Positions 2,580-64,000 of a stretch of 64,000 bases of DNA are shown in pieces; positions within the stretch are counted from its first letter, which is position 1, and each line of letters opens with the position of its first letter. Both the position numbers and the translations under genes were made by a program. The notes beneath the pieces are model-generated. The model had not been told where the DNA came from, ran no database searches, and saw only the letters and a list, made by a program, of their open reading frames with translations. The stretch lies in assembly GCA_024679065.1 (NCBI GenBank), contig JAGIQG010000008.1, positions 76,322,001 through 76,386,000 on the forward strand. Reading direction: 5' to 3'. Origin of the DNA: Sphyrna mokarran. Taxonomy: Eukaryota.

Positions 2580-2810
2580 TGGAAATTGAACACCAGAGCA
2601 GACTTGCGCTCCAGAGTTCAAAGATGCACAGCTGGAAGTAAACAGAAAGAGAAATGCCATGTTTCCACCGGAGCCAGACGGCCCTAAGGACCACCTTCCA
2701 AAGTGAATCGAAGCAGGTGACCAAAGAGATAAACTCGCAGAACAAAGCCCTGAGAACTTGGTGTCAATGCTGGAAGATGTTCAATGATCTCATATATTCA
2801 AGATTAGTGA
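2580..2810 (+). pseudogene. Decayed Myb/SANT-like DNA-binding gene of a Harbinger transposon
   Basis: Frameshifted peptide pieces LAPEFKDAQLEV...RNAMFP and KQVTKEINSQNKALRTWCQCWKMFNDL fit the Harbinger Myb/SANT pattern (APRF...LE / RTWxQCRKKFNDL). Confidence 0.7.
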
Positions 2811-3018
2811 ATGCATCTAGTGAATTCATTGGTGAATAGAATATCTCATATCCCCCACACCACTAATCTCTCATGTAGCTCATGCCTAAAATTAACATAT
2901 ATCATCTCAGGCCTACCCATCTTCTAATGCTTCCAGTCTCTCACGTACCTTTTGTTACCTTTCCCACATCTCCAACGAATCAGCTTGGGCGAGTACATCA
3001 CCCAAACAAAATGTATGC

Positions 3019-3126
3019 ATACTTACCTGGCAGGGGTGAAACCATAATCAAGCAGGTACTGCATTCAGGAGCTGGCACAGGACAATGCTAGCCCATTTCA
3101 TTTAGCGTTTGCTGTCACCTGCGATT
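3019..3126 (+). pseudogene. U1 snRNA-derived 5' segment (no Sm site or 3' stem-loop)
   Basis: ATACTTACCTGGCAGGGGTGAAACCATAATCAAGCAGGT matches the vertebrate U1 5' end (first 18 nt exact, about 34/39 by eye); downstream 'caggacaatgctagcccatttcattt...tgctgtcacctgcgatt' aligns to U1 stem-loop II region. Confidence 0.85.
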
Positions 3127-3211
3127 GTGGTTTGCCTAAGCCAGGGTACGATAAAGGATCAGAATAGCTAATGAGGTAAAATGGACGTTTTATCTGATGC
3201 TATTTTTTAAA

Positions 3212-3247
3212 GTCACCTTGGCCTTTTGGCTAAGATGAAGCATTAGT
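3212..3247 (+). pseudogene. U2 snRNA-derived 5' fragment
   Basis: GGCCTTTTGGCTAAGAT (3220-3236) is an exact 17-nt match to U2 5' stem-loop I, with degenerate flanks resembling U2 nt ~1-37. Confidence 0.8.
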
Positions 3248-4889
3248 TCAAGCTTGGGAGGGGGTGCAATGCCTCATCTTGTCAGATGGGATCTTGTTTG
3301 AGCGAGCCCGAGATAGGATGCAAAGTCTTGCCAGTTTGGATCTTGTTTGTCCCTCGTGGGGATCATGATTGGCTTTTTTGGTTATAAACAAAATACAAGA
3401 GGTACAAATAAAAAAAAGTGTGTGCTACACAATCACTGACAATTCTGTCCTCTCTCTCCAAGACATAGCAAAAACAAATACAAGAGAACAGCAGAGACAG
3501 CAAGGAGCCAAACACATCTTCATGCTTTGATCCGGACAAAAGAAGTGGGGCTTCACCATGTGGGATAGGGTGTGATAGAGCCCTTAGCTGAGGCCAATCA
3601 GGATACCTTTTGCTTTTTCTCAATTCCCAACGCATTCTTTATTCTATTATAAAATGCAACCTACAGCTGGTGGCATTTCTGTTCCCCACTCCAATTCATC
3701 CCAATCCTCTCCTTCTTCTGATTTTTTGCCTTATATACCCAAGAATTGTTGCCAGGCCTGCCACAATAGCCTCAGGAGAGAGATCTGCACCAGACCTCTG
3801 AGAAAACAACAGTTAGATGGTCTGATACTTCGAGTCAGCAGCTTGGATTAAAGTACTTTGCTGACTTTAAATACTGGTCTAGAATTGAGATCTGCTGACT
3901 TTTTGTTTGGCTATGATATATCCTCTGAATAACTTGTCAATGTTCACTACCCAACTCATGCGTGAACAATGATAGAAAATCAGAATGAAAGTGTAGAATA
4001 TTGGGGAAGAAAAAATGAATGTAGATAACTTTATATTATCATTACTAACATTAAATCCATTTACTTCCCTTCCCGAGTGCATTTTGTTAGTGAAAATTTA
4101 AGTTACTAATAAAGTGGATGTTACAGGAAGTCTGAGTTGCTCTGGCAACATGTAATTTTTACATGTATGTTGAAGTCTAGAGTTATGGATAGTAATTGCG
4201 TAGACTCCAATGTTATTTCCATCACATGGCTGATCAGACATCCCTCCCACTCTTACTATCTGCTGTTGGAGTGTGCTGAAAGGATTTGCAGATTAATACT
4301 GAACTTATTTGGTCATGTTATGAACACATTATCCATAGCCATCAGGTCCTGGGATGGACTGAACTCAGAGCTTCTAGTTCAAAGGTAGAGACATTACCCA
4401 CTGTGCCTTCAGACTTCCACAATAATTGTGTGTGTATCCAAAATAAGAATTTTTTTGCCTAACTGAGGAATGGCTCCTTTAATTCTATTCAGGTAAATAC
4501 AGAGTTAAATAAACAGTTTTAGGGGGAAAAAATCATTTCTTAACTCAGCATACTTTTGCAATAATTGTTTTTTGAAAAGCTGGATGATTGATGGGCAGGG
4601 ATTGGGTGAGCTGGGTTGCAAGAAACTCAATTGGAATAAAAACATTCTGGGTGCGACTCTCCAGTCACGCTCGCCCCAAGTCTGGAAAATCCTGCCCAGG
4701 TCAGTGGACCTTTGCATGGTCCATGTCCCGCCTGTTACATTTCCCATGGTGGGCAAGACTAAAGTTCCACCCTCTATGTCATTTGGCAAAATATTTGTTT
4801 GATTGACAGCTCTTTCACTTTATCAGGCAAAAAAAAATTATTCTGCTTGATTACCAATAGCATTCTAACTACATTTATCATCCAATGGA

Positions 4890-6019: not shown

Positions 6020-7400
6020 CTTACCCTCACCATTCTTGAAAATATCTGCCCCATCTCAACCTCTGCCTCTTCTCCCAAAATCTGTGACCTCCCAACTCCA
6101 GGTCCAATTTTCTAAAGACTTCATGTTTGAATACCTCCAGTCAGGTTTATGTCCCACCACAGTTCTGAAAATGACTTAAATTCAAATTGCATCCTACTTG
6201 ACTGTGACAAAGATAAACTGTCCTTCTTCATCTTTCTCAGTCTGTCTGCAGCCTTTGATAGGGTGCCATCTTCCTCCACTGTCTCTTCACTATTATCCTG
6301 CTGGTTGGCACTGCTTTCACCTGGTCCCATTTTTATTTATCTAATCATAGCCAGAGGATCAAATGTAATGGTTTTCTTCCTGCTCCCACCCTTAATTATC
6401 TGAAAGATTTGGCCTCTCATTTCTCTTATAAATGACGCTCTTTGACGATATCATCCAAAAACAAAATGGCAGTTTTCACATCTACTCCGATTGCATGTAG
6501 CTCTACCTCACCAGTGCCTCTCTCAACTCCTCTAGTGCCTGTTGCTTGTTTGACCTCCAGCACTGATGAAAAAAGATCTTCAATTAAATATTGGAAGACA
6601 GAAACCAGAGATTTTTAACCCTGCTGCAAACGTGTTTCCTAAGTACCTTCTCCCTGGCAACTGCCTGAGACTGAGCTGGACTGTTCATAACCTTGGTGTC
6701 ATGTTTGCTTCCGACTACGTATTTGCACCACAACTAATATCACCCAATTGTAAGCCTGGCTACATTAGCTACTGCTGGAGCTCTCACTTCCAGCTTTGAC
6801 TATTCCAATATACACTTAACCATCATCCATATTCTATCCTTGATACTTGAGATTTAAAATGTTAATGCCCATGTACTAACTTGCACCTTATTTTGTTCCC
6901 ATCACCCCTGATTTTACAGATCTACACTGATTCGTAGTGAAACACCATGTCTTCCTTATTTTTTAAATATCCTCCAGTTCCCCAACATTTTGAGATAGCT
7001 ATACTCCTCTCATTCTGGCTCTTTGAGCATCGTAAATAGTTTGACAATACCAGGTTTAAATCCAACTTGACAAAGGCCATAGAGTCGAAAGCTTGCGAGT
7101 TTACTATCAAATAAGTAGGTTGGATTTAAACCTGATGTTGTCAGACTACTTACTGTGTTTACCCCAGTCCAACACCGGCATCTCTACATCTTTGAGCATC
7201 CCCAGTGTCAATTTCTCCACCATTGGTGGCTATGCCTGCAACTGCAAAATCTCTGGAACACCCTCCCTAAATGCCTCTGCTGCTCTTTCTCTCTTTCCTC
7301 CTTTGAAGTACTTCTCGAGACCTGTCTCTTTGTCCAAGCTTTTGATATCAGTCCTAATATATCCTTATTTAGTTCTGTGTCAAATTTGCTTCAAAATACT
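6020..7400 (+). mobile_element. Decayed L2-clade LINE (RT region to 3' end), interrupted at 7032-7190
   Basis: QSGxxxxHS-like codons at 6139 and ILLDCDKDKLSFFIFLSLSAAFDRV (L2 'LLDLSAAFD' motif); many stops and frameshifts. Confidence 0.7.
7032..7190 (+). mobile_element. Fold-back Penelope-derived short element, family A
   Basis: Imperfect inverted arms (tgacaataccaggtttaaatccaac / gttggatttaaacctgatgttgtca), same 'ccagtccaacaccggcatctctacatc' tail, TSD ctttgagcatc at 7021-7031 and 7190-7200. Confidence 0.8.
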
Positions 7401-8907
7401 CCTGATCTGAAGGATGTAACAGAAATAAGCAGGAGTAAGACCATGGAGCTTAACCTGGAGCCACTGTAGGCGAGTAATGGGTGATGAGTAAACAAACTTT
7501 GGTGTGAGTTAGGACATTTTACTAAATTAAGGGTGCTACATAGGTACAAGTCATTGATGTCTATGTAATTTCCTTTAATAGTGATAAATTAATGGGAATT
7601 TGTGTATGGCAACAAGTCTCTGTTTCACAATTCAGTCTGCATCATATTCATAAGGGAGATACAGATGATGAAGATTACTTGGTCCAACTTAGCTCATCCA
7701 TCCAGAGTCACAGTAGCTGTTTGATCCCAGAATTGTTGCTTACACTGCACATGTGGACGAACAACCTACATGTTGCTCATTCTTCTTATAAAAAACTTCG
7801 AAATGTAAGTCTAAATTTTCCTTTTACTAGTTTATGGTTGTGTACTCTAATTCTGTTCCAGAATTCCAAATTGATCTTCTCTGATTTATGATCTGATATG
7901 CATCTGCATCACTTATCTCCTCTCAAAGGGAAAGGTCAATGTTTTACAGCCTTCAAAACTAAGAACATTAATATTTGGGATTCGTTTTGTGGCCCTTCTC
8001 TGCACCATCTTGACTGCCTCTCTCGTGCCTTGATGACCTGAACTGGGTTAAATTCTCAATATGCAGCCTTACTTTATGCTGTCCAAATAGTACTTCCTTT
8101 GACCTGTAGCCTCCATTTTGAGTCTATTGTTCAATTTTCCATTCTCTGTATAGATTGCTGCTTGATTGTGTTTGGATTTGTTTATCATCATGTTTACTGA
8201 AATCTTTAGCCATTCTCAAAATCAAACTTGGTCATTTTGACATAGCAAATTTGTGGACTTTTGATTTTTTTTCCTTATAGAAAGAATCTGAGAATCTAAT
8301 TATGTTTAAAGTTTGTGTTTGTTAAATAAATGAATTTGCTTAGGTTTGAAAAGAAAGGCTGCAAACTGCAGACACCAGAAATGTGCGTAGAATCTAGACA
8401 GGTCAGTTTGTGGAATTCACAACTGATTTTTTTTTCTAAAAATATACTTTTTCACAAAAATTATGTTAAAAAATTGATCATCCAAAGTTGGTGTTACATA
8501 AGGTGCAGACTAACTCAGTTTCTTTCAATATTGTATGTTACTCACTGCAGATATGATTTTCAATATTCATTACATCTCAAACATATAGGCAGTGAGGATT
8601 TGCCAAGTTTCCAACTCCTGGTGTATTACTTCTGCTTCTGTGGTTGAAATGCTTTATGCAGTGACGTTTCCCCATCCTGCCTTTTCAGCAGCTGCTCCAA
8701 ACTTTCATGTGTTCCTCAGTCTGTGGTCTTGCGTCACACCAGATCCATTATCCAGAACGACTTCCTACTAATCTTGAGAATAGTAGGAGCCTTCAGGCAA
8801 AATTTTATGATTTCTTTGCACCCATTTTGCAGCAGAAAATATCATAAATTTGGGCATAAAGCAGCTAGCAGCAATGGCACCCATTCTTACGCCTGTTGTG
8901 AGCTTCT

Positions 8908-9068
8908 GATGTGGAGATGCCGGTGTTGGACTGGGGTAAACACAATAAGAAGTCTCACAACACCAGGTTAAAGTTCAACAGATTTATTTGGTAGCACAGC
9001 CTTGAAAGCTAGTGGCTTTTGCTACCAAGTAAATCTGTTGGACTTTAAGCTGGTGAGATTTCTTACTG
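8908..9068 (-). mobile_element. Fold-back Penelope-derived short element, family A
   Basis: Reverse-complement tail 'gatgtggagatgccggtgttggactggggtaaac', then inverted arms around 'gaaagctagtggc'. Confidence 0.8.
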
Positions 9069-28365: not shown

Positions 28366-29605
28366 CTTACTAACCTCATTGAGTTTTTTGAGAAAGTGAC
28401 CAGAGAGGTGGATGGGGGTAAGGCGGTTGATGTAGTATATATGGACTTTAGTAAGGCGTTTGATAAGGTGGCCCATGGAAGACTTCTACAGAAAATGCAG
28501 ATGTGTGGAATAGAGGGTGATTTAGCTAATTGGATTAGGAATTGGCTGGCAGATAGAAGACAGAGGGTGGTGGTTGATGGGAGATATTCATCGTGGAGTT
28601 CGGTGACGAGTGGTGTGCCTCAGGGGTCTGTTTTGGGGCCCCTGCTGTTTGTAATTTTTATAAATGATCTGGATGAGGGTATTGAGGGATGGATCAGTAA
28701 ATTTGCAGATGATACTAAAGTTGGTGGAGTGGTAGATAGTGAAGAGGGGTGTTTTAGTTTACAGAGTGACTTGGACAAGTTGCAGAGCTGGGCCGAGAGG
28801 TGGCAAATGGAGTTTAATGTGGAAAAGTGTGAGGTAATGCACTTTGGCAGGAACAATAAATGTGTAGAGTATAGGGCTAATGGTAGGGCTCTTAATAGTG
28901 TTGAGGAACAGAAGGATCTTGGTGTATGTGTCAATAGATCCCTGAAAGTAGGCAGTCAAGTGGATAAAGTTGTTAAGAAGGCATATGGAGTCTTAGCTTT
29001 TATTGGTAGGGGGATTGAATTTAGGAGCCGCAGCATCATGTTGCAGCTGTACAAAACTCTAGTGCGGCCGCACTTGGAGTATTGTGTGCAGTTCTGGTCG
29101 CCACATTATAAGAAAGATGTGGAGGCATTGGAGAGGGTACAGAGGAGGTTTACTAGGATGTTGCCTGGTATGGAGGGCAGGTCCTATGAAGAGAGGTTGA
29201 AGGATTTGAGGTTGTTTTCGTTAGAAAGGAGGCGGCTAAGGGGGGATCTTATTGAAGCATATAAGATAATTAGAGGTTTGGATAGGGTGGACAGTGATAG
29301 CCTTTTTCCTAGGATGGAGAAAGCTAGCACGAGGGGACACAACTTTAAATTAAGGGGTATGAGTTATAGGACGGATATCAGAGGTAGGTTCTTTACTCAA
29401 AGAGTGATTAGGGAGTGGAATGCCCTGCCTGCAGCTGTTGTAGATGCGCCAAGTTTGGTGGCGTTTAAGAGGTTAGTTGATAAGTATATGGATGAGAAGG
29501 GAATGGTTTAGTTAGGAGGGGCATTGCTTTTTATTTTGGTCGGCACAACATCGAAGGCCGAAGGGCCTGTTCTGTGCTGTATTGTTCTATGTTCTATGTT
29601 CTATG
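28366..29605 (+). mobile_element. Young 5'-truncated CR1 LINE
   Basis: Uninterrupted RT frame from LTNLIEFFE to stop at 29511, short 3' UTR, (ttctatg)n tail; splits the APE region of the older CR1. Confidence 0.95.
28396..29511 (+). CDS. CR1 ORF2 reverse transcriptase C-terminal part (5'-truncated, no native start)
   Basis: YMDFSKAFDKV, SGVPQGSVLGPLLF, FADDTK, LYKTLVRPHLEYCVQFWSP; 371 aa with no stops. Confidence 0.9.
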   Translation: MTREVDGGKAVDVVYMDFSKAFDKVAHGRLLQKMQMCGIEGDLANWIRNWLADRRQRVVVDGRYSSWSSVTSGVPQGSVLGPLLFVIFINDLDEGIEGWISKFADDTKVGGVVDSEEGCFSLQSDLDKLQSWAERWQMEFNVEKCEVMHFGRNNKCVEYRANGRALNSVEEQKDLGVCVNRSLKVGSQVDKVVKKAYGVLAFIGRGIEFRSRSIMLQLYKTLVRPHLEYCVQFWSPHYKKDVEALERVQRRFTRMLPGMEGRSYEERLKDLRLFSLERRRLRGDLIEAYKIIRGLDRVDSDSLFPRMEKASTRGHNFKLRGMSYRTDIRGRFFTQRVIREWNALPAAVVDAPSLVAFKRLVDKYMDEKGMV

Positions 29606-63199: not shown

Positions 63200-64000
63200 C
63201 AAAAGAAAGCCTTGCATTTATATAGTGCTTTTCACAACTGCCAATGATCTCAAGCTGCTCTGCAGCCAATGAAGTGCTGTTTGAAGGGCTGTCACTGTTG
63301 TAAGGCAGAAAACATAACAGCCAATTTTACACATAGCAAACTCCCACAAGCCACGATGTGATAATGACTAAATAATCTATTTTTGTGATGTTAATTGAGG
63401 GATAAATATTGTCCGGGATGCCAGGGAAAACTCCCTTTCATTCCTTCAAAATAGTGCCACAGGATCTTTTACATCTAGCCGAGCAGGCAAATGCATCTCA
63501 GTTTCCTTTCCAAAAAAGTGGCATGGGTAACAATGCAGCCACCTCTCAGTACATCATGGGCTATAAAGCACCTAAAAGTGCCTGGTCATTATGAAAAAGC
63601 AATATAGAAATGTAAGTCTTTTTCCTTTGCTCATGTGCTCCCTGGGTGGCAAATGGGAAACAAAGACTCAAATTCCTCATCACTGTCACTACAAAGGAAT
63701 TCAGTAAAGTTTTACAACACCAATTTTGAATCCAACCAATTTATTTGATAGTAAATTTGCGAGCTTTAGCAAATGCTATGGCATTTGCCTGACAAAGGCC
63801 ATAGAGTCAAAAGCTTGCAAATTTACTATCAAATAAATTGGTTGGATTCAAAATTGGTGTTGTAAAACTTCACTGAGTTTACCCCAGTCCAACGCCGGCA
63901 TCTCTACATCATGACTACAAATAATGTTAGCCTTGCTTTTGTGCTAAAGTCTTGGGAGAAAACTTCAACCCAGATTTCTTTGACACTGAGGCAGGACTGC
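63200..64000 (-). mobile_element. Deu-domain SINE (SacSINE1-like), interrupted
   Basis: 'gcatttatatagtgcttttcac...gatgttaattgagggataaatattgtccggga...atagtgccacaggatcttttacatc' (63200-63560) resumes at 63922 with 'gttagcc...gtgctaaagtc...aacttcaaccc'. Confidence 0.75.
63701..63918 (+). mobile_element. Fold-back Penelope family A short element
   Basis: 67-bp inverted arms with 2 mismatches (63701-63767 / 63810-63876), decayed hammerhead ctgacaaaggccatagagtcaaaagct, same tail as 2081-2119. Confidence 0.88.

Follow-up and report, generated by a model that had tools for sequence, protein, structure and literature searches.

SINEs that carry snRNA sequences at their 5' end have been reported solely from crocodilians (Kojima 2015, PMC4494074). 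In these SINEU families U1 and U2 pieces were added repeatedly at the 5' end and U1 is partially duplicated; they further have a poly(A) tail, target-site duplications (TSDs) of ~10 bp and internal oligo-T runs. They have no internal promoter, and their mode of transcription was not settled there, flanking promoters being the probable answer (PMC4494074). Keno and Utopia elements insert into U2 at nt 38/39 (PMC4640811, PMC6136364).

Here we analyse a 399-nt element found in a 64-kb window, i.e. the whole stretch of shark DNA that was examined (64,000 nucleotides). By description, it has 5' modules made of U1 and U2 and a partial U1 duplication in common with SINEU-1 (notably SINEU-1G/1G2) and SINEU-2 of crocodilians, and the order of U1 over U2 in common with SINEU-1. 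An apparently unique 3' body, a poly(A) tail, a length below 500 nt, internal oligo-T, the lack of a pol III promoter and a short TSD (~10 bp in SINEU) are likewise features of both SINEU groups. In contrast to SINEU, the shark element has an elasmobranch host, its U1 part is predicted to be refolded into one long rod, it contains a structured spacer that is possibly U4-derived, and it gave no evidence of Mariner-N4 targeting. From Tx1-Mar and Keno (PMC4494074, PMC4640811, PMC6136364) it differs in having no ORF and no U2 nt 39+ downstream. The Group IV chimeric snRNA retropseudogenes of Doucet et al. 2015 (PMC4476161) resemble it in that a 3'-truncated snRNA is joined to another RNA, with a TSD and L1-like cleavage; however, they are single events and mostly involve U6, whereas in the shark element three or more snRNA pieces are joined and the structure looks remodelled. 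The target site of Dada-U1 transposons coincides with the end of the element's U1 module, but these are DNA transposons of ray-finned fishes (PMC3706591, PMC8869645), and their terminal match to the shark element is weak. We lean towards regarding the locus as a copy, full-length but dead, of a short poly(A) retroposon in an elasmobranch that is non-autonomous, works like SINEU-1 and probably arose independently.

Architecture of the element

All modules lie on the plus strand, and the U1 and U2 pieces were aligned by hand to the human snRNAs. The U1-derived head (3019–3126) corresponds to U1 nt 1–96. Its first 39 nt are identical to U1 nt 1–39 at 34 positions, the first 18 without exception; nt 40–58 are collinear with U1 and largely rewritten (8/19 identical); and beyond a 10-nt insertion at 3077–3086, positions 3087–3126 align with U1 nt 57–96 (28/40 identical). 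The head is followed by a second U1 piece (3127–3146), a repeat of U1 nt 38–52 matching at 14 of 15 positions with 5 nt inserted, which is predicted to close a 42-pair hairpin with 3026–3049. The sequence-only reading had proposed an element that begins at U1 nt 1 and runs to about nt 95, with an insertion and a displaced U1 piece, and the alignment bears this out, reaching nt 96. The Rfam U1 model aligns to 3019–3141 with 17.8 bits (E 0.033, 651 nt scanned) against a cut-off of 69.5. At curated cut-offs Rfam reports no family in the element region, and when run on narrow stretches it did not recover the U1 57–96 segment.

After a hairpin spacer (3147–3211) comes the U2-derived module (3212–3247). 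It is firm over U2 nt 8–31 (3217–3240, 22/24 identical by hand), where Rfam places U2 nt 8–25 at 3217–3234 (15 bits, E 1.4, 651 nt scanned), and both of its CpGs are decayed. Of the U2 5' fragment originally drawn over 3212–3247 the core stands, but the extensions to nt 2–7 and nt 32–37 are loose, and the 3' boundary may fall anywhere in nt 31–37. The same reading had noted that Keno and Utopia target U2 at about this position; the module fades near their site. The 5' 13-mer of U1 has a single occurrence in the window, free of mismatches; as 1.28 occurrences are expected by chance when two mismatches are allowed, the strength of the match comes from its being exact and longer. For the U2 18-mer with up to three mismatches we found one occurrence versus 0.04 expected, a number that 4 of 100 shuffles reach. 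No other motif resembling U1 or U2 was detected in the 64 kb, and these two are 200 nt from each other, on the same strand and inside one TSD pair, in agreement with the proposal of a single retroposed unit with two snRNA modules.

Downstream of the U2 module lies a body (3248–3406) in which Rfam detects neither an snRNA nor any other RNA family, as the description of a non-snRNA body had implied. It is unstructured (z –0.2 versus shuffles) and contains an internal duplication (3262–3300 and 3316–3349) with 21/24 identities at a spacing of 49 nt; of 2000 controls from adjacent windows, 16 reach this score. The repeat also resembles U2 nt 44–55 (9/12 and 10/12 by hand), but this was dismissed, as such scores are at chance level over so many positions. 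The longest open frame inside the element has 58 codons, and protein searches gave no homologue for it. Oligo-T runs occur at 3188, 3203, 3224 and 3374; the B-box consensus pattern is absent from 2700–3500, and no tRNA was found.

The element ends in an AATAAA signal at 3407 that runs into an A8 tail at 3410–3417, so that the ending previously read at 3407–3417 is confirmed. An AATAAA immediately 5' of the tail is a LINE-like arrangement. The left TSD (3008–3018) may reach ~3003, and the right one (3414–3425) was delimited by sequence inspection and null tests. Their pairing had been called a degraded A-rich TSD, and it withstands both nulls: the score is equalled or beaten by 7 of 2000 random left flanks and by 2 of 85 other A-tracts, and the two copies differ at 2 of 12 positions. 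The A-rich tail overlaps the right TSD, so part of it may be target DNA and its length is uncertain; a tail of only A8 that overlaps the TSD counts against the retroposon reading. The bottom-strand cut at the element site would be TTTT/G, and the L1 endonuclease consensus is given as TTTT/A in PMC4476161; judged by sequence, the A-rich insertion site is close to this consensus. The 500-nt flanks of this one locus match no repeat in the window except one 16-mer.

Predicted structure of the U1 head and the spacer

The whole element folds better than its shuffled versions (z –4.2). The signal comes from the head (z –3.98, –55.6 kcal/mol) and the spacer (z –3.21), and the flanks have none; among background tiles, only 1 of 159 has a z as low as that of the head. 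For the head, a single rod with 42 pairs (38 Watson-Crick) is predicted, with a mean pair probability of 0.94 in the full RNA; it differs from the native U1 fold and leaves U1 nt 1–7 free. Of the 113 positions of the head that align with human U1, 29 differ. By hand, 28 of the 42 rod pairs would also form with the human bases and 4 involve inserted bases, while the other 10 would be mismatches with the human bases, all 10 being Watson-Crick in the element; this count is partly circular, the pairs being taken from the minimum-free-energy fold, and its reference is human and not shark U1. When we introduced random substitutions at 5, 10, 20 and 25%, a z of –3.98 or lower was kept in 11, 1, 0 and 0 of 40 trials, respectively. 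As random substitution rarely keeps the stability, most of the differences in the head are not neutral decay of this copy, and on the predicted fold the U1 head is remodelled and not merely decayed. A rod with compensated positions also favours a lineage that passed through several rounds of retroposition over a one-off chimera. Nonetheless, templated correction of a quasi-palindrome could mimic a selected pairing pattern without selection.

Loops I and II of U1, the sites of U1-70K and U1A, are mutated in the element, and loop I is paired in the predicted rod. The 5'-splice-site-pairing sequence of U1 had been described as kept. This is true of the letters, nt 1–11 being intact, but in the predicted fold nt 8–13 are paired (P ~1). 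The change at nt 35, one of the ten compensated positions, is also present in a crocodile U1-derived stretch (PMC4494074) and may therefore be natural U1 variation. The predicted rod suggests that such heads are selected as RNA structures and not merely carried.

The spacer contains a candidate U4 5' stem-loop, the kink-turn, at 3165–3200. It matches U4 nt 24–47 at 20 of 24 positions with a 12-nt insertion in the loop, and keeps the three-base bulge AAU and both GA steps, the closing C-G pair being U-U (by hand). A score as good turned up in 23 of 5000 shuffles of the element and 15 of 5000 shuffles of the motif, and in none of 316 tiles. The motif was picked by eye among ~30 possible snRNA stretches, and with p ~0.004 per motif the corrected p is thus ~0.1; Rfam does not report U4 in the spacer at E ≤10. 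A derivation of the spacer from the U4 kink-turn as a third module is suggestive only.

Signals of snRNA genes

Sm site, 3' box and octamer, searched as consensus patterns, are absent from 2700–3500, and the lack of an Sm site asserted in the sequence-only reading holds in this range. A search of the window for the continuation of U2 from nt 39 onwards, with up to three mismatches allowed, gave no match. With neither snRNP signals nor downstream U2, the locus cannot be a functioning snRNA gene, nor is it a Keno element sitting in its U2 target. At 2954–2959, ~60–65 nt upstream of U1 +1, five bases agree with the beginning of the consensus of the snRNA proximal promoter element; the rest of it is unmatched and no octamer accompanies it.

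That the locus is a functional variant snRNA gene, or that a U1 and a U2 pseudogene became neighbours by chance, we consider very improbable. A gene would account for the structured head and spacer and for the intact U1 nt 1–11, but it should have an Sm site, a 3' box or an octamer and an Rfam score closer to the cut-off than 17.8 is to 69.5. For a chance meeting, the sole U1-like and U2-like motifs would have to fall 200 nt apart within one TSD pair, which we expect in ~0.3% of cases.

Copies and genomic context

A BLASTN search (word size 7) of 2901–3600 against the window gave no second copy, and Smith-Waterman alignment of four parts of the element to the window gave nothing above the nulls. 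Searches in protein space with the 58-codon frame of the minus strand and, against longer proteins, a 46-codon frame of the plus strand (2 of 21 short frames) returned no matches; like the scans of the window, they are a weak test. Plasmid and phage collections yielded matches at E 0.1–0.4 alone (11 and 1 records). In the literature outside Repbase Reports, Dfam and subscription journals, no shark snRNA-headed SINE was among the matches listed; the family may already be deposited. An snRNA-headed retroposon family of which one copy is seen is nevertheless likely.

The shark-like host is corroborated by an ORF of CR1 type at 28366–29508 (381 codons open), which looks young and is nearest to shark sequences. 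Its best named vertebrate matches among the best 120 of 6576 are Stegostoma (72%), Chiloscyllium (70%) and Hypanus (66%), those of birds, turtles and a lizard in the same 120 reaching 42–58%, and no crocodilian name is among these best 120 of 6576. One further record is 95% identical. Two proteins assigned to Klebsiella and Proteus, encoded on contigs of 1.6 kb, match at 74% and 66%, respectively, and probably represent fish DNA in bacterial-labelled records. We found no host gene in the window: Pfam matches were obtained for 3 of the 168 frames with 72 or more codons, all to retroelement domains.

The window contains several other elements. An LTR-retrotransposon RNase H remnant lies at 49215–49538. 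At 42400–45700 there is a remnant, presumably Penelope-like, with a C28 run at 43127–43154; an inverted pair of 85% identity (41499–41996 and 43391–43873) brackets its 5' part, and a region near 42700 that looked like Tx1 turned out to be Penelope-like on translation. MITE-like short palindromic repeats are found at 1959–2119, 7038–7190, 8905–9055 and 63697–63918, with copies up to 98% identical; the one at 8905–9055 yields matches to miRNA models at 8970–9048. A SNORD36 match in Rfam at 6558–6630 (32.3 bits, E 0.3), just above the cut-off, lies within a decayed reverse-transcriptase remnant (6100–6800) that we assume to be L2-like, and is probably a false positive.

Alternative origins

The element might be a truncated or internally deleted LINE of the Tx1/Keno clade with an snRNA head of its own, the body being its 3' UTR. 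In crocodilians, four families of Tx1-Mar, a group that clusters with Keno, are headed by U1 or U2 (PMC4494074); the U2 module of the shark element fades near nt 37, beside the Keno/Utopia site, and AATAAA stands directly before the tail. Such an origin seems rather unlikely to us in view of the missing U2 continuation, the lack of a coding remnant (the 58-codon frame being without homologue) and the fuzzy end of the U2 module at nt 31–37. Nor do we think it probable that several template switches in one insertion produced a one-off chimeric retropseudogene that decayed later, even though snRNA/LINE chimeras flanked by TSDs, some of them tripartite, are documented (PMC4476161) and the window holds a single copy. 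Neutral decay to ~26% difference from U1 should have destroyed the fold, and the divergence is uneven along the U1 head (34/39, 8/19 and 28/40 identical), compared with 2 of 12 differences between the TSD copies. Furthermore, in the human survey of that paper chimeras of the same orientation were mostly U6/U6atac, and none of 33 U1 copies was a U1/L1 template-switch product.

A further scenario, for which we see very little probability, is a U1 gene that was interrupted by a Dada-U1 transposon, read through from the U1 promoter and retroposed as a chimeric RNA. It would account for the start at U1 +1, and the collinearity with U1 ends at 3126, which is the 3' end of the 6-nt target duplication of these transposons (PMC3706591, PMC8869645); 19 bases on, where their sub-terminal repeat would be placed, 5 of 7 positions match (1.6% per position in the window). 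However, 11 sites in the element match this 7-mer at up to two mismatches, and the 19 nt that follow 3126 have at most 9/19 identities (by hand) with the nine distinct Dada-U1 ends compared, U1 nt 38–52 being the better match (14/15). In addition, Dada was reportedly not detected in elasmobranch genomes (PMC3706591, PMC8869645). Two further matches, namely the exact Dada-U1 sub-terminal 7-mer at 3264–3270 and 11 nt at 3302–3312 that equal the far end of one goldfish Dada-U1, were treated as chance, as both have the wrong orientation for read-through.

Proposed origin and implications

For the SINEU-like retroposon that we prefer, the master RNA would have grown through template switching, which joined one 3'-truncated snRNA piece after another to the 5' side of a polyadenylated body, U2 coming first, then possibly U4, then U1 nt 38–52 and finally U1 nt 1–96. 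Repeated rounds would have rewritten the U1 part into the long rod that buries the U1-70K loop. An external promoter, of U1 type or belonging to the host, may have driven the master, a pol II transcript with its 5' end at U1 +1 and its 3' end set by its own AATAAA, whereupon the ORF2 protein of an L1/Tx1-clade element would have integrated this RNA into an A-rich site through target-primed reverse transcription, leaving a TSD of 11–16 bp. The modular anatomy, the TSD, the tail and the loss of snRNP signals are observed, whereas template switching, a master made by pol II from U1 +1 and the L1/Tx1 partner are what we infer; the present copy is without a promoter of its own, and the body could be the 3' end of a LINE. 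As the host is not a crocodilian, one copy is seen and the body may be of LINE origin, we do not file the element as a member of SINEU.

A bolder version, which we put forward tentatively and hold to be rather doubtful, is a snRNA-mosaic family of the shark's own that combines U1, the U4 kink-turn and U2 stem-loop I, with a head selected to a 42-pair rod that leaves only seven 5' bases free and a master transcribed from the promoter of a U1 gene. If this were true, snRNA-headed SINEs would have originated independently a second time, for the first time with a U4 module, and there would be a handle on their transcription. With a copy that begins at U1 +1 and has a head specific to its lineage, the question of the promoter becomes testable. 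Were a shark family established, the snRNA-headed design would be shown to recur.
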